Virus record (IMG/VR): IMGVR_UViG_2547132281_000014
Location: 1-40,471 of that record
Reading direction: 5' to 3' (one strand)
Source: a virus
Taxonomy: Duplodnaviria > Heunggongvirae > Uroviricota > Caudoviricetes
DNA: 40,471 nt
Part shown: positions 1,369-14,721 of the stretch, in pieces
How positions within the stretch are numbered: position 1 is the stretch's first letter
How the letters are laid out: every line of letters begins with the position of its first letter
The notes under the pieces: model-generated
Seen by the model: only the letters and a program-made list of their open reading frames with translations
What the model was told of the DNA's origin: nothing
The model's database searches: none
Program-made: the position numbers and the translations under genes

Positions 1369-1444
1369 GCCGATATAGCTCAGTTGGTAGAGCAGCGCAT
1401 TCGTAATGCGAAGGTCGTAGGTTCGACTCCTATTATCGGCACCA
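1369..1444 (+). tRNA. thrW: tRNA-Thr (anticodon CGU)
   Basis: 76-nt cloverleaf: acceptor GCCGATA/TATCGGC, D-arm AGCTCAGTTGGTAGAGC, anticodon loop with CGT, T-arm GGTTCGACTCC, encoded CCA end. An integrase stop codon lies 14 bp downstream. Confidence 0.96.
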
Positions 1445-3154: not shown

Positions 3155-3516
3155 TATGCTCCAGCCTCCGGTGCTTTTGGCATTACTGCCCAGTGAGTGA
3201 TATTGACGTTTTCAAGGTCCCCGACCTGAAATGTCCACTGCCATTCTCCGGTTTCTTTTTGTCCCCAGGTGTACCAGAGAGAACGCCAGCCAATTAGCCA
3301 GCCTTCTCCGTTAGCATCGAATAACAAAACACTTTCATTTGCTGGTGGCAGTTCAGTTGACACTGGTATTACTTTGTTTTCCTGTGCTGCACATTTAGCT
3401 TCAAGCGCATCGAATTTACGCACCAGGTATTCAGCATCTGTTTCATTTACTTTCAGATCTCGCGGTACACATCTCCCACGAAGAAACCCTTCCATTTCGA
3501 AAACATTCATGCGCAT
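3154..3516 (-). CDS. yfdS: DUF551-type phage protein, YfdS-like (120 aa)
   Basis: C-terminal WLIGWRSLWYTWGQKETGEWQW...ITHWAVMPKAP is the Trp-rich DUF551 signature. The ORF overlaps both flanking genes. Confidence 0.7.
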   Translation of the reverse strand: MRMNVFEMEGFLRGRCVPRDLKVNETDAEYLVRKFDALEAKCAAQENKVIPVSTELPPANESVLLFDANGEGWLIGWRSLWYTWGQKETGEWQWTFQVGDLENVNITHWAVMPKAPEAGA

Positions 3517-4043
3517 TTGCGTAACTCCGATAACTCGTTAAAGCGTTCCATAAACATCCCGTAGGCATGGCCCGGTGCCAGTGGAATCACGTTGAACATC
3601 TCTGTTGCCGGGATATCTTCCAGTACAGGCCAGAAAGAGCCATCATCAAGCCCGAGATCGCGGCGTTCGGTTGCCAGCATGATGAGATCGGCATATTTCA
3701 CGGGCGTACTCATAACTGGCGGTAACCCGTATTTCTCACGGATTACGGCGTCTATTTTTTCTTCCATTTGTTTATAGTCAGGAAGAAGGCGTTTCAGTGG
3801 TGCGGGAATGTCCTGGCAATACGCTTCTGTTGCATCATGCATTAACGCTTCAAAAGCAAATTCCTGCGGCACCAGCTGGCTGCAAAGAACCGCATGTTGG
3901 GCGACGCTGTAGAAGTGCGAAAGATGACCGGCAAAGCGACAGATATTTGAAAGGGAAACCGCGATATCGTTAATATCGATGTCGTCTTTATTTATCCTGT
4001 CATAATAAAAATGCTTCCCGGAAAAAGTTTTAATAAATGACAT
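3507..4043 (-). CDS. yfdR: HD-domain phosphohydrolase (5'-deoxynucleotidase-like), YfdR-like (178 aa)
   Basis: Start moved to the ATG at 4043, which is preceded by GGAGAA. HD-superfamily pattern RFAGH...HD(ATEAY). The 178-aa length matches my recollection of K-12 YfdR. Confidence 0.78.
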   Translation of the reverse strand: MSFIKTFSGKHFYYDRINKDDIDINDIAVSLSNICRFAGHLSHFYSVAQHAVLCSQLVPQEFAFEALMHDATEAYCQDIPAPLKRLLPDYKQMEEKIDAVIREKYGLPPVMSTPVKYADLIMLATERRDLGLDDGSFWPVLEDIPATEMFNVIPLAPGHAYGMFMERFNELSELRKCA

Positions 4044-4136
4044 TTTGTTCTCCACGTATATGCGCTGCACCGCGCTGAATTCTGGTAAAAAGAATCCCTC
4101 ACCATCCGGCGATTATTGAGTAAATTACGTTTCCAT

Positions 4137-4170: not shown

Positions 4171-4995
4171 TCAGGCGGTGAAAGTACCAATAAAGGTTTC
4201 TACTTTGCTGTCCTTGAATTTCTCAACAAGCAGATCACGAAATTCGTTAGCCATTTCTTCCTGCACCGCCTCCAGCTGAATAATGCGCAGAACCAGTACA
4301 GGACGATCGCCAGTGATAATACTGAGGCGTAATTTAAACGGACGTTCTTTCAGACCTTCAAACGGAACGCATTTAAATTCAAATGCCACTGGCATAATGT
4401 CTTTGGTCTTCGCTTCGACAGACTCCATCAGGGAGCGTTTGCCGCTGAAGTCATTATCTTCAAAATCAGCGGTCTGGTTTGCTTCAATCGTGATTTTACG
4501 GACAGCCGCAGCCGCTTTTGTTGCCTGAATAGCGTCACCATTAGCATCAAAGCCCACAAGATAGTCGGCCCAGTCTTCAATCCATTCTGCTAGTGACTTC
4601 TGGGAGTTACGCTCGCCGTTAACAGACAACAGAGCAGAGAACGGTGCTGTCTTTTTCAGTTTGAGTGTGGCGGTGTTATCTGCGTGACCTGGTTCATCAA
4701 TAGTACCCAGGTTAAGCACACTGACGGCACGCATATTATCAGCATCGATAAAGCAGCGGGTGCCTTCATCTGCAAGATCTTTAGAATAACGGGTAAAGTC
4801 ATCGATGCTGGCAGTGGAAAGCGCACCACGGAAACGGAAGCGATTTAAATTAAATTTTTCCAGATCATGAATGCGGAAATTCTCAGGCAATGCCACAGCA
4901 TCGGCACCAATCTTACTGATAATTTCATTAACACCCTGAGCAGAAATAAGGGCATGGATTTGATTAATTGCGGTTGCGTCTAAGTTCTGAGACAT
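4171..4995 (-). CDS. yfdQ: YfdQ-like (DUF2303-type) phage protein, 274 aa
   Basis: Clean 274-aa ORF preceded by an SD sequence (GAGGA). Length and position match my recollection of CPS-53 yfdQ. Function unknown. Confidence 0.7.
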
Positions 4996-5060: not shown

Positions 5061-5423
5061 TTAACGACCTGCTGCGCGGAGTTTTCCGTCAGGTTCACCG
5101 GCAAGAGTCAGTAACTGTCCCTGGTCTTCCTGCAGAATAGTCAGGCGACCACCGCGATTGACATACATCGGCGTTTCGGTGGTGTCTTCTTCGGAAATTT
5201 TCCCGCGGTTAGTCGGGCGAACATATGAGAGTTTGTGTTTGATTTTCACTCGGTTCTCATCAAACGGTTCGATTTCCAGGTTGAGCGAGACCTTACCTTT
5301 GGTTTTCGTGTTCATCACACCGGAAGCGACTTCACTGAGAACTGCGCCGATTTTGGTTTCAAATACGCCGCCGTCCAGCTCCCCGATAAATGCCTGCACA
5401 TCAGTACTGCGTTCGCTAGCCAT
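5061..5423 (-). CDS. yfdP: YfdP-like small phage protein (120 aa)
   Basis: The track ORF (226 aa) is trimmed to the ATG at 5423, which is preceded by GAGGAG. The downstream 120 aa (MASERSTDVQAFIGELDGGVFETK...) look protein-like. The upstream 106 codons are Arg/Pro/Cys-rich nonsense. Confidence 0.65.
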   Translation of the reverse strand: MASERSTDVQAFIGELDGGVFETKIGAVLSEVASGVMNTKTKGKVSLNLEIEPFDENRVKIKHKLSYVRPTNRGKISEEDTTETPMYVNRGGRLTILQEDQGQLLTLAGEPDGKLRAAGR

Positions 5424-5439
5424 TTTGCTGCTCCTCATC

Positions 5440-5760
5440 ATATCGACTCTGCAAGGTCGGTTAGTTTCTCCACAAAACAGAGAAGAACACCTGCGGTGAC
5501 TGCCGCCCGGATGGATTGGGTTATGAGCCCGTCGTCCGGTGATGCTCTTCTCTGTTTTGTAAAAAGGACGGTACCAGCCGGAAGCAAGGGTACAAGCTGG
5601 TACCGCCAAGACTACACACAGCATCAAGTTGTGGTGCCGGGTGCCTCCCGGTGCCTGGCGAAGGTTGCACACCAGGCGGGTGGGTATCCACAGAAGGTCG
5701 ACTGTCAGCCTCAACCTTAACCCGCGTGCGCTGAGCCGCATTCACCACAACGCTAAGGAT
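5440..5760. ncRNA. Candidate structured non-coding element (strand and class unknown)
   Basis: No credible ORF in any frame. Locally GC-rich inside AT-rich accessory DNA. Perfect helices: 15 bp (5472-5486/5546-5560), 10 bp (5569-5578/5596-5605), 5 bp (5637-5641/5647-5651) and 6 bp (5653-5658/5672-5677). Confidence 0.3.
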
Positions 5761-5824
5761 TCTCTCTGGTTGAAAATACTTAGCTGTTATGTGCCTGCTT
5801 TTAGCCACATCAGGCGAGGTGGAC

Positions 5825-5876
5825 CTGGTTATTCCCCAACAACAAGGATTCGGTTAATCTGGTTATCCCCAACAAC
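5825..5876 (+). repeat. Two direct repeats, CTGGTTAT(T)CCCCAACAAC, 34 bp apart, immediately upstream of the 144-aa ORF
   Basis: Copies at 5825-5843 and 5859-5876 differ by a single-T indel. A possible -10 element TAATCT (5855-5860) lies between them. Confidence 0.6.
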
Positions 5877-5891
5877 GCAAAAGGAAAAGAA

Positions 5892-6326
5892 ATGTCCGGT
5901 AATATCTATACGCTGTACAAATCCCACTGTGAAAATGTTGGAAAGTATCGGGGCATTGAAATCAGTGGGGTAGTGTCATCAGTCGAAATAAGCAAAGTTG
6001 AATCAAGGGCAACATTACTTACTCTTTTGGACCTTGTCTTACATGAGCACCGGAAGAAATTCGGCACTCCCTATAATCAGTTGAATGGGAAAAAGGCTCT
6101 GGTTCACCTTATTCTGATGAAGCATCACTGGATGCCAAAACAGATTAATGAGATGAAATTTGATGAACTTCTTCTTTCAATTCAGGATGAACTCACACTT
6201 GATAAAATAAGCGTAACCGCCCAGAAATTTTTAGATTATCGAGACTGGAGAGCACAAATTCATCACTTTGATGATTTTGACGAAAATGAATGGGATCCTA
6301 ATTTGTCTGCACAATATCTAAAGTAA
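5892..6326 (+). CDS. Hypothetical 144-aa protein, oriented against the early-left operon (moron-like)
   Basis: ATG preceded by AAGGA with 6-nt spacing. AT-rich codon usage unlike the phage core. Mostly helical-looking sequence with an acidic C-terminus (HHFDDFDENEWDP). No family recognised. Confidence 0.55.
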   Translation: MSGNIYTLYKSHCENVGKYRGIEISGVVSSVEISKVESRATLLTLLDLVLHEHRKKFGTPYNQLNGKKALVHLILMKHHWMPKQINEMKFDELLLSIQDELTLDKISVTAQKFLDYRDWRAQIHHFDDFDENEWDPNLSAQYLK

Positions 6327-6504
6327 CATCCTGTGATAAAACCGTGATTTCCTGATCCAGTTTTTTTAAGGAGTCTATTGTTTCCTGTCGATAAGACAGC
6401 ACTTCACGAAGCTGGTTTATAGCTGCCAGCTTCTTTGTCATCCACTCATAAATTTCCTCATCTGTGTAGCCAGGCGCGACGATTTTGGGTTCTGTTTTGT
6501 GCAT
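6298..6504 (-). CDS. Hypothetical 68-aa coiled-coil protein, first ORF downstream of pL
   Basis: ATG at 6504 is preceded by GAGGAG. The track start at 6519 is a TTG and is less likely. The 3' end overlaps the convergent 144-aa gene by 29 bp. Confidence 0.5.
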   Translation of the reverse strand: MHKTEPKIVAPGYTDEEIYEWMTKKLAAINQLREVLSYRQETIDSLKKLDQEITVLSQDVTLDIVQTN

Positions 6505-6563
6505 TTCACATCTCCTCAAGTTATCAGTTACTTGTTGATGGGGACCAGATTGTTAAAGAGCTA

Positions 6564-6668: not shown

Positions 6669-6710
6669 ATATTGCTACTTAAAGTTGCAAAAATCAACTA
6701 CAAAAAGTAG
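6669..6710 (-). promoter_or_regulatory. Putative pL with two operators (OL)
   Basis: Minus strand: TTGATT (6697-6692), 17-bp spacer, CAATAT (6674-6669). Operators CTACTTAAAGTTG (6675-6687) and CTACAAAAAGTAG (6698-6710) are 23 bp centre to centre. This mirrors the pR/OR layout. Confidence 0.6.
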
Positions 6711-7016
6711 AAGTTAAGGGCATAAAAACGCATTTTGAAATTAATTCATTGAATTTACAGGTAAAATATTTTGGGGGCTATGATCAAAAAATTATATTGT
6801 GAAGTTAGCTGAGTTGTAGAACGTGATGGATTGTTTCATTGTGGCTGAGATCAGTATGTGATCTAGTTAATCATCAAGTGGGGAGAAGTCAATCATGAGA
6901 GTATTGTTGAGTTTTTGGAGGCTAAGTGTAAAACGGTAGGGAATTTACTACTCAATGGATTGTGTGATTTAGCCTCGATAGTAAGAAAACTAGGGCAGGT
7001 CATAGTCAAAAACTTA

Positions 7017-7424
7017 TCAAAACATAAATTTGGCGAGACCTAAAATCGCCAAGCCTGTTGCAACAGTCCATGCGATCTGTTTATTTACGGCTGATGAAAT
7101 AGCGCTGTTGACTTCACTTAGGCTAGGTTTTTTTGACAACTTTTCATCTATATCTATTTGTTTTTGAAGGATAACAGCGACATCGCGTCGGGTGTCGGAG
7201 AGAGCGTTTCGCAAATCACGAATGTCAGCTCTCATCTCTGCGAGATTTGTTTTTATATCCTCAACATTCGCTTCTAACTTAGCGACTCGGGCTTCAAGCA
7301 TGTCATCACCTCCGCCATCTCCACCGTGTCTTCTAATTGTGGGAAGTTCACTATTAAATGGTACTACATTATTTTGCGGCGTCGGCATTTTTTTCATCTT
7401 CCGTTTTTGCTGGGAACTTTTCAT
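7017..7424 (-). CDS. Tail-anchored coiled-coil membrane protein (up to 135 aa; start uncertain), last gene of the cI operon
   Basis: Heptad-like segment LEARVAKLEANVEDIKTNLAEMRADIRDLRNAL. Single hydrophobic helix at the extreme C-terminus (IAWTVATGLAILGLAKFMF). Alternative ATGs lie at 7397, 7388 and 7301; the one at 7301 has the best SD, GGAGGT. Confidence 0.55.
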   Translation of the reverse strand: MKSSQQKRKMKKMPTPQNNVVPFNSELPTIRRHGGDGGGDDMLEARVAKLEANVEDIKTNLAEMRADIRDLRNALSDTRRDVAVILQKQIDIDEKLSKKPSLSEVNSAISSAVNKQIAWTVATGLAILGLAKFMF

Positions 7425-7716
7425 TTACCCAGTTCAAAACTGAAAACGCATTTATATGAATTTCATTTCCACAATTGTTGCATATTAGTGAAAAGTAATA
7501 CTGGTTAGCAGTATCAGAATAAATGCTTTTTTCAGTAAAAACATTCACATAACTACCAAGTTTCATAGTACATGGCATGCCCACATTCGCGCTGACTTGA
7601 GGCACAGTCAATCTGTCGTGTCCACATAGTGTACATTTTAGATATATATTCTTTTCTGAGAAATAAGAGACCAACATATCCATGTTAATCTTTTCGAATC
7701 CCTGCTCACTAGCCAT
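7369..7716 (-). CDS. Zinc-ribbon-like 115-aa protein immediately downstream of cI
   Basis: ATG at 7716 is preceded by AAGGG and lies 15 nt after the cI stop. Two CxxC pairs are present (CTLC and CNNC). No family recognised. Confidence 0.6.
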   Translation of the reverse strand: MASEQGFEKINMDMLVSYFSEKNIYLKCTLCGHDRLTVPQVSANVGMPCTMKLGSYVNVFTEKSIYSDTANQYYFSLICNNCGNEIHINAFSVLNWVNEKFPAKTEDEKNADAAK

Positions 7717-7731
7717 TATATGCCCTTAGAA

Positions 7732-8472
7732 CTATAACCGATTGTATTTTATTGACTCATGAATCAACGCCTTGCCCATTACATAAAGCTGATCCTGCGA
7801 TTTTTCATCGATGTACCATTTCTCATAGGCAGGGTTATCCGAAAGAACGGCTAGCTTGTCACCTTGCATTTGAAGACGTTTAACATGAAAAGTCTTACCG
7901 TAAACGAAAGAGTAAATTCCATCAGTCTGGAAGTGACGAACAGAAATGTCGACAAACAGTCGATCTCCGGAAACGAGAGTAGGGGACATACTATCGCCAT
8001 TTACAGTCATAACCTTAATATCATCCTGAGAACGGTTACCGAAAAGAGAACGGGCATGTTCTGTTGTGAACTCAATGGCGTAGAGCACATCAACATAGTC
8101 TGAAAGCATATAGGTTCCAGGTCCTGCGCTAACGCTAAGATCTAAAACTTCTATCCTGTATACGTCGGGTTTTGTTGGATTGGGGATGCTTGCCATTTCC
8201 TTACATCCTTCTCTCTCGCCAACACCATATTCTAAATATGAAGCCGATACCCCCAGAGCCAACGCAAGTTTATTCATGACAGAGGCACGAGGCTTCGCTG
8301 CGCCGATTGTGTATCGCCGCGCCATTTCATATGTAACGCCAACAAGACTTTTGAGTTGGGTGACAGAAATTCCCTTGTTTGTCATTAACTCGTTTAGTCT
8401 CTTGGCGAAATCTGGATACTTCTGTTCTTCTACCATAGGTAGAAGATTACTCACATCACATACGCTCGTCAT
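7732..8472 (-). CDS. CI-like prophage repressor (XRE HTH plus S24/LexA-type autopeptidase domain)
   Basis: N-terminal HTH (FAKRLNELMTNKGISVTQLKSLVGVTYEMARRY). C-terminal GDSMSPTL...K(R)L Ser/Lys dyad pattern. Divergent from cro across operator repeats. The start is uncertain: ATG 8472 is possibly leaderless, and ATG 8436 is the alternative. Confidence 0.88.
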   Translation of the reverse strand: MTSVCDVSNLLPMVEEQKYPDFAKRLNELMTNKGISVTQLKSLVGVTYEMARRYTIGAAKPRASVMNKLALALGVSASYLEYGVGEREGCKEMASIPNPTKPDVYRIEVLDLSVSAGPGTYMLSDYVDVLYAIEFTTEHARSLFGNRSQDDIKVMTVNGDSMSPTLVSGDRLFVDISVRHFQTDGIYSFVYGKTFHVKRLQMQGDKLAVLSDNPAYEKWYIDEKSQDQLYVMGKALIHESIKYNRL

Positions 8473-8474
8473 TT

Positions 8475-8516
8475 CTATTTTAAGTAGTTGCAATTCGCTA
8501 CTTTAAGTAGCATTAT
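8475..8516 (+). promoter_or_regulatory. Putative pR with two operators (OR); probable divergent pRM
   Basis: TTGCAA (8488-8493), 17-bp spacer, CATTAT (8511-8516). Operators CTATTTTAAGTAG (8475-8487) and CTACTTTAAGTAG (8498-8510) are 23 bp apart. On the minus strand, TAAAAT lies just upstream of the cI ATG at 8472. Confidence 0.6.
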
Positions 8517-11817: not shown

Positions 11818-12140
11818 CGACGTTAACTCAATGCCAGCAGCAGGTGCTGGATATGCTGATTTCTTACCAGAAAGAACGTGGCTTTCCGCCAACCAATCAG
11901 GAGGTGGCAACCATGCTGGGATACCGTTCAGTGAATGCAGCAGTGGAGCATCTTCGCGCACTGGAGAAAAAAGGCGTCATCACGATAAAGCGTGGCGTGG
12001 CCCGGGGGATAACGCTTCATACCGCGGTGAAGGCCGACGACAGCGAGGCGGTCGGGATTATCCGCGCACTGCTTGCCGGTGAGGAAAACGGCAGGCTGCG
12101 TGCAGCCCACTGGTTACATGAGAGGGGCCTGAAAGTATGA
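11814..12140 (+). CDS. LexA DNA-binding-domain-only protein (108 aa)
   Basis: The sequence aligns by eye with the E. coli LexA N-terminal domain (QQQVLDML / GFPPTNQEVATMLGYRSVNAAVEHLRALEKKGVITI / ARGITL). No S24 cleavage or catalytic domain follows. Confidence 0.75.
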   Translation: MTTLTQCQQQVLDMLISYQKERGFPPTNQEVATMLGYRSVNAAVEHLRALEKKGVITIKRGVARGITLHTAVKADDSEAVGIIRALLAGEENGRLRAAHWLHERGLKV

Positions 12141-12526
12141 AGCTGATCCTGCCTTTCCCGCCCAGCGTGAACACGTACTGGCGACACCCCAACAAAGGGG
12201 CGTTTGCTGGTAAGAGCCTGATAAGCACGGCGGGGCGAAAATTCCAGAGCGCGGCGTGCGCAGCAATAGTTGAGCAGTTACGTCGTCTGCCGAAACCAAC
12301 GTCGGCACCTGCTTCAGTGGAGATCGTGTTGTTTCCTCCGGATAACAGGATCCGCGATCTGGACAACTATAACAAGGCGCTGTTTGACGCCCTGACCCAC
12401 GCGGGGGTGTGGGAAGACGACAGTCAGGTGAAAAGAATGCTGGTGGAGTGGGGACCGGTTATCCCGGAAGGGAAGGTCGAGATCACTATCAGTAAGTACG
12501 AGAAACCGGCGGGTGCAGCCGCCTGA
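12137..12526 (+). CDS. rusA: Holliday junction resolvase RusA
   Basis: MKLILPFPPSVNTYWRH...RDLDNYNKALFDALTHAGVWEDDSQV is the RusA signature. The position in the nin region is typical. Confidence 0.92.
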   Translation: MKLILPFPPSVNTYWRHPNKGAFAGKSLISTAGRKFQSAACAAIVEQLRRLPKPTSAPASVEIVLFPPDNRIRDLDNYNKALFDALTHAGVWEDDSQVKRMLVEWGPVIPEGKVEITISKYEKPAGAAA

Positions 12527-14355: not shown

Positions 14356-14721
14356 GTGATGCGTGATATTCAGATGGTTCTGGATCGTTGGGGAGCATGG
14401 GCGGCGAGTGATAGTTCAGGAGTAGATTATTCTCCTATAGCTGCTGGGTTTAAAGGGCTTCTTCCCTATACAAGCAAAACACGTCAGGCTTGTTCAGATA
14501 GTGATGCATTAATTATTGAAGGTTGTCTTGCTCGTCTAAAGCAAAAAAGGCCGGACGAACATTCGCTTCTTGTTGCCCATTACCTATACGGTATCTCTAA
14601 AAGAAAGCTCGCCAAGGCTAGTAAAAAGGATGAGAAACTAATACGCATTGAGATACAGATGGCTGAGGGATTTATCGATGGTTGCCTTAGTATGCTCGAT
14701 ATACGTTTAGAATGTGAATAG
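14356..14721 (+). CDS. Late-gene antiterminator Q family protein
   Basis: 121-aa ORF with the DRWGAWA... motif typical of one Q family. It is the last gene before the lysis region. The ATG at 14359 is the likelier start. Confidence 0.78.
   Translation: MMRDIQMVLDRWGAWAASDSSGVDYSPIAAGFKGLLPYTSKTRQACSDSDALIIEGCLARLKQKRPDEHSLLVAHYLYGISKRKLAKASKKDEKLIRIEIQMAEGFIDGCLSMLDIRLECE

Follow-up and report, generated by a model that had tools for sequence, protein, structure and literature searches.

The stretch of DNA analysed here (the window) is the 40,471-nucleotide (nt) IMG/VR virus record IMGVR_UViG_2547132281_000014, positions 1 to 40,471, assigned to the Caudoviricetes. It is a lambdoid prophage, SfV/ST64B-like, integrated beside a tRNA-Thr gene. 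An earlier note on its sequence had singled out positions 5424-5891, between yfdP and a gene for a protein of 144 amino acids (aa), as a candidate novel structured RNA. Our analysis indicates that the minus strand from 5775 to 5464 probably constitutes a leader module of the early-left operon, in which a core resembling the small RNA family STnc100 is followed by a linker and terminator resembling those of DicF and by a long read-through hairpin, the whole yielding an Hfq-type small RNA. We give this reading a probability of roughly 0.55. The element is a sub-threshold variant of the known STnc100 family in an unusual genomic setting and not a new RNA class.

Positions 5769-5558 of the minus strand aligned end to end with the Rfam model of STnc100 (RF02076, model positions 1-206) at 43.0 bits, with E values of 5.9e-8 in the local search and 3.4e-6 over the whole window. 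The element thus has a matching family, where the earlier note had recognized none. A default Rfam scan is silent on it because the score falls just under the curated cut-off of 47, and at curated thresholds a tRNA alone was reported in the window. The same model gave 35.1 bits in phage ST64B and 34.4 bits in the Qin prophage of Escherichia coli K-12. The window holds a single copy of the core: no second copy was found within its 40 kilobases (kb), none after the rightward promoter and none in the region from Q to the lysis genes.

Members of this family are known as expressed RNAs. Eleven STnc100 copies are listed in E. coli O157:H7 EDL933, all with transcriptome reads, and STnc100_4 of enterohaemorrhagic E. 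coli has been verified by Northern blot (PMC5331693). Downstream of stx2B lies an STnc100 copy that overlaps EcOnc27, an RNA bound by Hfq (PMC12711010, PMC12370729). PasD1 and PasD2 of enteropathogenic E. coli are Hfq-dependent RNAs with many partners in RIL-seq (sequencing of interacting RNAs after their ligation; PMC8550237), and a 2026 preprint linked them structurally to STnc100 (bioRxiv 10.64898/2026.05.13.724894). The window element has the fold, host range and lambdoid prophage setting of STnc100, EcOnc27/sRNA103 and PasD1/PasD2. It has nearly the same conserved motifs as STnc100 and PasD, namely GUGGUG-AAU, the hairpin P2 with a UNNGC loop, the hairpin P4 and the motif CACCGGGAGGCACCCGGCACCAC, and its intrinsic terminator likewise stands about 20 nt behind the closing helix P1; P1 with its GGUG/CACC core, the AAU behind it and the hairpin P5, which abuts the 3' strand of P1, are identical to the family consensus. 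The window core differs from classic STnc100 in its P2 stem (GCGGC in the window branch, CCCCC in the classic branch), in having no sigma-70 promoter of its own, and in lying in the early-left operon, where classic copies occupy the late region, either after stx2B or in the interval from Q to the lysis genes.

The core consists of five covariation-supported helices, P1, P2, P4, P5 and a pseudoknot (Table 1). Covariation was followed in an alignment of 43 diverse non-redundant cores. Taken together, P1, P2 and P5 were 92% paired in these relatives and 11 pairs had changed on both sides; none of 500 shuffles reached the observed value on any measure, and controls with slid positions were 37-49% paired. 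For P2 alone the figure was 99.5%, with three of the five pairs turned from C-G to G-C between the classic and window branches, and for P5 it was 100%, with rare double changes (CCUGG/CCAGG in Qin, UCGGG/CCCGA in Enterobacter). P4 took the form of 38 distinct stems with one shared position. The 16 nt after P2 could pair over at least 6 base pairs (bp) with the P4 loop of the same sequence in 81% of the relatives, versus 22% with the loops of other sequences; 37 distinct duplexes were seen, and the observed mean was reached in none of 2000 permutations. The support for the pseudoknot and for P4 comes from this permutation script. Read from its sequence, ST64B has kept the pseudoknot pairing and not the competing local hairpin. 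The structure line of RF02076 contains no pseudoknot and none is mentioned in the PasD/STnc100 preprint (bioRxiv 10.64898/2026.05.13.724894). This pseudoknot appears to be new, as does a copy of the core in the K-12 spacer between dicF and dicB.

All five helices listed in the earlier note (5472-5486/5546-5560, 5488-5491/5538-5541, 5569-5578/5596-5605, 5637-5641/5647-5651 and 5653-5658/5672-5677) are exact reverse complements and were recovered by an independent repeat search, and GGTGCC does occur three times, at 5633, 5640 and 5650. The repeat search also returned a 9-bp perfect helix that the note had missed, 5628-5636/5743-5751, which closes the whole structured domain. The description of the stretch as GC-rich holds locally, with a peak of 59% in 5500-5699, but not overall (52.8% in 5424-5891 versus 50.9% in the window); to the right of the element the GC content falls to 36-41%. 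Folding of 5424-5800 gave -158.1 kcal/mol for the minus strand (z = -6.05, equalled by 0 of 100 shuffles) and -144.5 kcal/mol for the plus strand (z = -3.4). The supposed single element of 467 bp has to be narrowed, as the conserved RNA module covers only about 5464-5775 and the rest (5776-5891) is a variable spacer. Among the roles that had been suggested, that of a stand-alone non-coding RNA on either strand was right as to the non-coding RNA, which is confined to the minus strand, inside the early-left operon and without its own promoter. A partner or leader RNA for the 144-aa protein does not agree with the data, since RNA and gene belong to different strands and SfV, SfII, ST64B, Pantoea and Qin have the module but not this gene. 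Nothing speaks for a single-strand DNA site: the compensatory changes fit RNA pairing including G-U, and the folding asymmetry favours the minus strand.

The reading as a decayed or frameshifted protein gene could draw on the annotation of E. coli D6 (NZ_CP010148), in which the Prokaryotic Genome Annotation Pipeline (PGAP) placed a 'frameshifted hypothetical protein' at 12059-12369 of locus L001, corresponding to window positions 5438-5748, and on the scarcity of stop codons in the stretch, which contains open reading frames (ORFs) of 95-226 aa. The ORFs of the gap had no match in PHROGs, Pfam or NCBIfam, however, in agreement with the earlier note, which saw no credible gene here, and no protein family was matched in any frame. 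No reading frame was open in more than 20 of the 43 relatives, and the insertions and deletions are not multiples of three: the distance between two conserved anchors fell evenly over the three residues modulo 3 (17/14/12). The substitutions are, moreover, compensatory for RNA helices. The excess of folding, the covariation and the lack of a conserved frame thus uphold the view of a structured non-coding RNA, and a former gene is very improbable. Because of the frame analysis and the covariation, the D6 pseudogene over the module is best read as an annotation artefact.

Downstream of P1 the module continues with a linker and an intrinsic terminator. The linker core GCUGUGUG.AGUCUUG is common to the E. 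coli and ST64B versions, though the terminator stem that follows is wholly different, and the linker, its stretch GCUGUGUGUAGUCUUG included, looks seed-like and is a candidate for base pairing. The terminator has a perfect 12-bp stem and U5 and starts 20 nt after P1; a consensus scanner, limited to loops of 8 nt or fewer, passed it over. Five stem pairs have changed on both sides in ST64B and the U-tract was kept. Among the loci fetched, 109 of 148 cores had a terminator-like hairpin no more than 170 nt after P1. The GGCGGUA in the 5' arm of the terminator resembles the ops element of RfaH (GGCGGTAG); the G at position 8 that the ops hairpin needs is lacking, and this likeness was set aside.

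The earlier note had recognized no likeness to DicF. Linker and terminator were identical to K-12 DicF at 46 of 54 aligned positions, an alignment with several gaps for which no significance test was run. The likeness may extend over the whole 53-nt RNA, UUGGCGGUA.CAG and the U-tail included. Like DicF, the window module belongs to an operon of early-left type governed by a cI-like repressor. The two differ in the 5' seed (UUUCUGGUGAC in the window, UGAUGCUGUGUGUAG in DicF) and in their order: core, DicF-like terminator and long hairpin in the window, DicF and then core in Qin. A further mark of DicF is pairing with the mRNAs of ftsZ, xylR and pykA. DicF matures by termination and by cuts of RNase E and RNase III in an early-left-type operon (PMC5069750; bioRxiv 10.1101/2023.04.14.536235), the route proposed below for the window module.

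Behind the terminator lies the long hairpin. Its stem was present in the minimum-energy fold, and the 15-bp helix of the earlier note is the middle part of it. RNAalifold on 13 variants returned 25 stem pairs, one of which changes from G-C to A-U and two by G-U wobble only. Because the 5' arm starts with the U-tract of the terminator, the long helix can form only in read-through transcripts. With 25 consecutive pairs, G-U included, it is longer than the 20 bp, about two helical turns, taken as the minimum for an RNase III site. Phage lambda offers two known cases, the retroregulation at sib/tI and the RNase III site in the N leader. As at sib/tI, the window helix overlaps a terminator and needs read-through to be complete; as in the N leader, a putative RNase III site lies between the early-left promoter and the first downstream gene. 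Unlike sib, which is downstream of int, the long hairpin is upstream of the genes that it would regulate.

We propose that the module works as follows. Upon loss of the repressor, leftward transcripts would reach the module and part of them would stop at the terminator with a 3' end at about 5560, giving an RNA of about 190-210 nt if its 5' end lies just upstream of P1. RNase E may cut in the linker and leave a DicF-sized RNA of about 65 nt, which with its conserved linker, GC-rich stem and U-tail would be an Hfq module acting in trans. The remaining transcripts would read through and fold the long helix, and a cut by RNase III would trim the small RNA and give the yfdP message a new 5' end. 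The terminator would thereby limit the expression of yfdP and of the genes beyond. The invariant loops of the core suggest recognition by a conserved host factor. A comparable RNA is PreS of lambda, an Hfq small RNA of the lytic cycle that arises within the early-left operon at terminator tL2a (bioRxiv 10.1101/2024.10.31.621285). The window RNA would be like PreS (LPR1) and 6S RNA in being Hfq-bound and in having its 3' end at an operon-internal terminator of a lambdoid phage. PreS is shorter (68-88 nt) and lacks the large structured 5' domain of the window RNA, and no relationship in sequence was noted. Other prophage small RNAs were considered and set aside as belonging to different loci: svsR/co293 is located at the 3' end of cI (PMC12803456), and HnrS is a 66-nt RNA of the late region (PMC13502914).

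Several points weigh against the proposed small RNA-producing leader. At the window locus the module is known here from its sequence alone, and its STnc100 score is below the Rfam gathering cut-off (43 versus 47 bits). The DicF model RF00039 gave 19.4 bits and an E value of 0.13 over 5620-5566, with a cut-off of 48; the genuine K-12 DicF scores 76.7 bits with this model. No site complementary to the linker was found within the window, the host genomes not being part of this search. The one fully compensatory pair of the long hairpin comes from a single lineage, and it is only the length of the helix that suggests a cleavage by RNase III. There is no adjacent promoter, so the RNA would rely on a promoter about 1.1 kb upstream, and the module must be transcribed antisense to the 144-aa gene. 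In addition, the cores of Qin, Pantoea, Enterobacter and Escherichia sp. L140 run directly into a gene with no terminator between, so that the core cannot be just a small-RNA body.

The edges of the module were analysed in an alignment of 23 window-type variants. It proved to be a sharp-edged unit reaching from about 25 nt before P1 to GUGGAGAAAC, and the phages differ beyond either edge. We concluded that the module is a unit of exchange with boundaries independent of the flanking genes. A leader specific to yfdP was rejected, as at least four different sequences were seen to follow this module. A scan of the region for a promoter in the 5' flank found none, the best sigma-70 match near P1 reaching only 6/12. 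Additionally, the 3' edge UUUGUGGAGAAAC (5464-5473, minus strand) is similar to the beginning of the core (GUUGUGGUGAAU). A truncated second core may thus contain the mosaic junction, in which case the conserved motif would seem to be a recombination joint as well.

The module and its core are widespread. An exact 20-mer from the element, CCGGGAGGCACCCGGCACCA, matched more than 120 viral contigs, about 21 of them of window type; the remaining contigs fell into 16 other clusters that share just GUGGUGAAU-CCCCCUnnGCGGnGGGGC on the 5' side and CACCGGGAGGCACCCGGCACCAC on the 3' side around a variable middle. When one genome per species was scanned with the 5' motif as it stands in the window (AAUGCGGCUnAGCGCACGCGG), more members turned up in Pantoea, Mixta, Enterobacter, Citrobacter, Shigella and several species of Escherichia. 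In complete E. coli genomes the window version matched 2860 of 5426 and the Qin version 4389 of 5426.

Comparison of these loci separated two branches. Classic members are mostly stand-alone genes, many with a sigma-70 promoter that ends 3-14 nt before P1 and matches the consensus at 8-10 of 12 positions (often TTGACA-17/18-TAAATT), compared with 6/12 in the window. Their terminator follows 17-60 nt after P1, and several of the loci sit just upstream of a holin gene. One locus (L112) has two copies, of 78 and 69 bits, between a P21-type holin gene and an ORF at the expected position of Q, for which no Pfam match was found. Tandem arrays of two or three classic units about 250 nt apart, most with their own terminator, were observed in the IMG/VR contigs L020 (374-1000), L028 and L065.

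The window branch has no such promoter and sits in early-left operons. In ST64B, cI and the yfdP homologue are 815 nt apart and enclose the core. A second terminator-like hairpin was noticed some 60 nt upstream of this core (5385-5435 of locus L002, minus strand, CUGGCGG...CCGCCAG then CUUUUU), and between this hairpin and a putative leftward promoter the leader consists of about 250 nt of GC-rich non-coding RNA. In Pantoea and Mixta prophages the core stands right in front of the first leftward gene, at a distance of 450-950 nt downstream from cI. In Qin it comes directly after DicF and before dicB, the latter identified by BLAST; in K-12 MG1655 (NZ_CP032667, 2495-2646 of locus L162) it is contained in a 175-nt spacer between DicF and dicB in which no feature is annotated. 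P1 of Qin has 21 bp (2495-2515 with 2626-2646 of L162), and 4 nt separate the end of its 3' strand from the Shine-Dalgarno sequence of dicB. By arithmetic on published lengths, the 72-nt DicF made by RNase III (PMC5069750) would end inside this P1. The DicF-like terminator is upstream of the core in Pantoea, Mixta and Qin, and downstream in the window. At three Pantoea/Mixta loci (L138 856-975, L135 3690-3815, L149 4640-4760) a small ORF is followed by a DicF-like terminator (GCUGUGU..UUGGCGGU...CCGC-U run) and a long hairpin, whose 3' arm overlaps the 5' strand of P1, so that the two structures would exclude each other.

Since the core directly precedes genes in other members, a cis-regulatory or factor-binding role is a serious rival, possible though not probable in our estimate: the core would be a sensor or regulatory leader, riboswitch-like or bound by CsrA or the ribosome, that controls downstream termination or translation, and the small RNAs would be by-products. 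A closing helix, a multi-helix junction and a pseudoknot make an aptamer-like layout, in which the junction and loop nucleotides AAU, UNNGC and AGGCA are invariant while the P4 and pseudoknot sequences drift freely. The P5 loop always shows GGA or GGAGG, and PasD2 is a dominant CsrA-associated RNA (bioRxiv 10.64898/2026.08.12.744399). As to position, cores of the window branch directly precede dicB, a TerB-like gene and the early genes of Pantoea, and the classic core is at the extreme 5' end of its transcript, before the terminator, with several before the holin gene; in Pantoea, P1 and the hairpin behind the terminator compete over shared bases. Against control of termination, the E. coli and ST64B terminator stems are wholly different without a matching change in the core, and in Qin and Pantoea the core cannot control the terminator, which is upstream of it. 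A classical riboswitch expression platform was rejected, as no conserved alternative or antiterminator pairing between core and terminator was seen by eye, a comparison that was not computed. Core and start codon are separated by a variable distance and sequence, and the gene content points to no ligand or protein partner. Put more broadly, and tentatively, the 124-nt core may have a function of its own as an RNA domain, be it as a sensor or as the landing site of a conserved host factor such as CsrA, the ribosome, RNA polymerase or a ribonuclease. The near-invariant nucleotides of P1, P2 and P5 beside a freely covarying P4 and pseudoknot would fit such a domain, which would then be more than the body of a base-pairing small RNA.

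We consider it doubtful that the core is an RNA-processing or stability module, in which P1 would serve as punctuation for RNase III or in the manner of RNase P and leave a protected paired 5' end. The 21-bp P1 of Qin, with the 3' end of the RNase III-made DicF mapping inside it, would suit this function, but with 9 bp in the window, and 6-9 bp in the majority of members, P1 lacks the length that RNase III needs. Classic transcription starts right at P1, giving a paired 5' end, for which a simple hairpin would suffice; the conserved pseudoknot and loops stay unexplained. A long helix does stand beside the DicF-like terminator in the window, Pantoea and Qin arrangements. Read from the sequence, P1 and P5 stack directly, like the acceptor stem and T arm of a tRNA, yet ARAGORN and the Rfam tRNA model found nothing tRNA-like here, and a tRNA-like element was rejected. 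A processive antiterminator like the put RNAs of HK022, which would travel with RNA polymerase and carry it past this terminator and later ones, is likewise unlikely, given the copy number, the fold, the position relative to terminators and the discrete terminated RNAs of other members. Suppression of downstream terminators by put depends on the beta-prime zinc-binding domain. The put RNAs are about 70 nt long with two stem-loops and occur in two copies, after the leftward and the rightward early promoter (PMC9378689). As with putL and putR, the window has a structured early-left leader RNA with a terminator downstream in a lambdoid phage seemingly without N; no N-like gene was found in these phages. 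In the window and in ST64B, whose leader has a second terminator-like hairpin, the terminator after the core must be passed for yfdP through int to be expressed. The window element is, however, a single 124-nt five-helix pseudoknot, set apart from put by the published description (PMC9378689), put having no annotation in the HK022 record (L003), and in Qin and Pantoea the terminator comes first and the core after it. Northern blots of classic members show discrete terminated RNAs (PMC5331693, PMC8550237). Some of these members stand close in front of a holin gene, and constitutive read-through there would be lethal.

Table 1. Features of the leader module and of its surroundings, in window positions; on the minus strand paired segments are given 5' to 3'.
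Feature	Positions	Strand	Remarks
Pseudoknotted core, 124 nt, STnc100/PasD type	5628-5751	-	RF02076 match and covariation
P1, 9 bp	5751-5743 with 5636-5628	-	repeat search; missed by the earlier note
Junction AAU	5742-5740	-	
P2 hairpin GCGGC-UCAGC-GC(A)CGC	5724-5739	-	5 bp, one bulged A, UNNGC loop
Pseudoknot 5' strand AAGGUUG	5712-5718	-	pairs with CAACCUU in the P4 loop, 5667-5661
P4 hairpin GCCUGGUG / CGCCAGGC	5653-5677	-	loop 5661-5669 contains the pseudoknot 3' strand; 6-bp helix of the earlier note, now 8 bp
P5 hairpin CCGGG-AGGCA-CCCGG	5637-5651	-	abuts P1 3' strand; nearly invariant in the family
5' flank of core (CCAGAGAGAAUCCUUAGC), conserved	5752-5775	-	E. coli/ST64B similarity begins about 25 nt before P1
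Single-stranded linker UUGAUGCUGUGUGUAGUCUU, candidate seed	5608-5627	-	
Intrinsic terminator, then CUUUUUAC	5559-5607	-	12-bp stem (5607-5596 with 5578-5567), 17-nt loop; DicF-like
Long hairpin	5467-5565	-	25-bp stem 5565-5541 with 5491-5467, including the terminator U-tract; branched interior 5540-5492
GUGGAGAAAC, 3' (right-hand) edge of conserved module	5464-5473	-	phages diverge straight after
Variable spacer outside the RNA module, 5' of the 144-aa gene	5776-5891	+	BLAST coverage breaks at about 5767, 5822 and 5876, depending on the phage
Shine-Dalgarno GAGGAG of yfdP	5436-5431	-	yfdP is the next gene on the module's transcript
yfdP	5061-5423	-	phrog_204 match; yfdP in RefSeq; ATG 5423-5421
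yfdQ	4171-4995	-	
yfdR	3507-4070	-	
Integrase-sized ORF, 387 aa	1459-2622	-	homologous ORF in E. coli strain D6 annotated as integrase
tRNA-Thr (CGU) gene	1369-1444	+	adjoins the 387-aa integrase-sized ORF, left prophage end
144-aa ECs1072-family gene (NF033230)	5892-6326	+	
73-aa gene	6298-6519	-	
Two further genes	7017-7716	-	
cI-like repressor	7732-8493	-	
CII-like gene and replication genes	from 8725	+	
Q	14356-14721		

The genes of the early-left neighbourhood are all on the minus strand, the sole exception being the 144-aa gene, which looks like an inserted accessory gene. As cI and its neighbours are minus-strand genes, the gap 5424-5891 lies inside a leftward early operon leading from cI to yfdP, yfdQ, yfdR and int. 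Leftward promoter-like sites were found at about 6790-6930 (minus strand), roughly 1.1 kb upstream of the element. The surrounding 6700-6999, between the 73-aa gene and the next minus-strand gene, is AT-rich (33-39% GC) with a GC skew of +0.45 to +0.49, and the best minus-strand promoter-like sites, 6820-6791 and 6932-6903, mark it as the region that probably holds the early-left promoter. Closely upstream of the 144-aa gene, an imperfect direct repeat with a spacing of 34 bp (5818-5836 and 5852-5870, plus strand; GGTGGACCTGGTTATTCCC and GGTTAATCTGGTTATCCCC) may be the promoter or operator of this inserted gene. At the left end, the junction of the tRNA-Thr gene and the integrase-sized ORF is the probable attachment site; the close relative in D6 sits at a tRNA-Arg gene instead.

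With scores just under the Rfam cut-off, this whole branch of STnc100/PasD is invisible to routine annotation, and one copy was called a frameshifted pseudogene by RefSeq. Its 5' domain, with a pseudoknot and unusually invariant loops, is more structured than a base-pairing small RNA needs. In enterobacterial prophages the core stands ahead of early-left genes and of toxic genes (dicB, and the holin gene in several late-region loci); were it indeed a domain in its own right, the K-12 spacer between dicF and dicB would harbour an overlooked example. Through the module, a terminator and a probable RNase III site come to lie behind the early-left promoter and ahead of the genes from yfdP to int. 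This suggests a control point for delayed-early expression in phages of the SfV/ST64B type, in which no N-like or put-like antitermination element was found.

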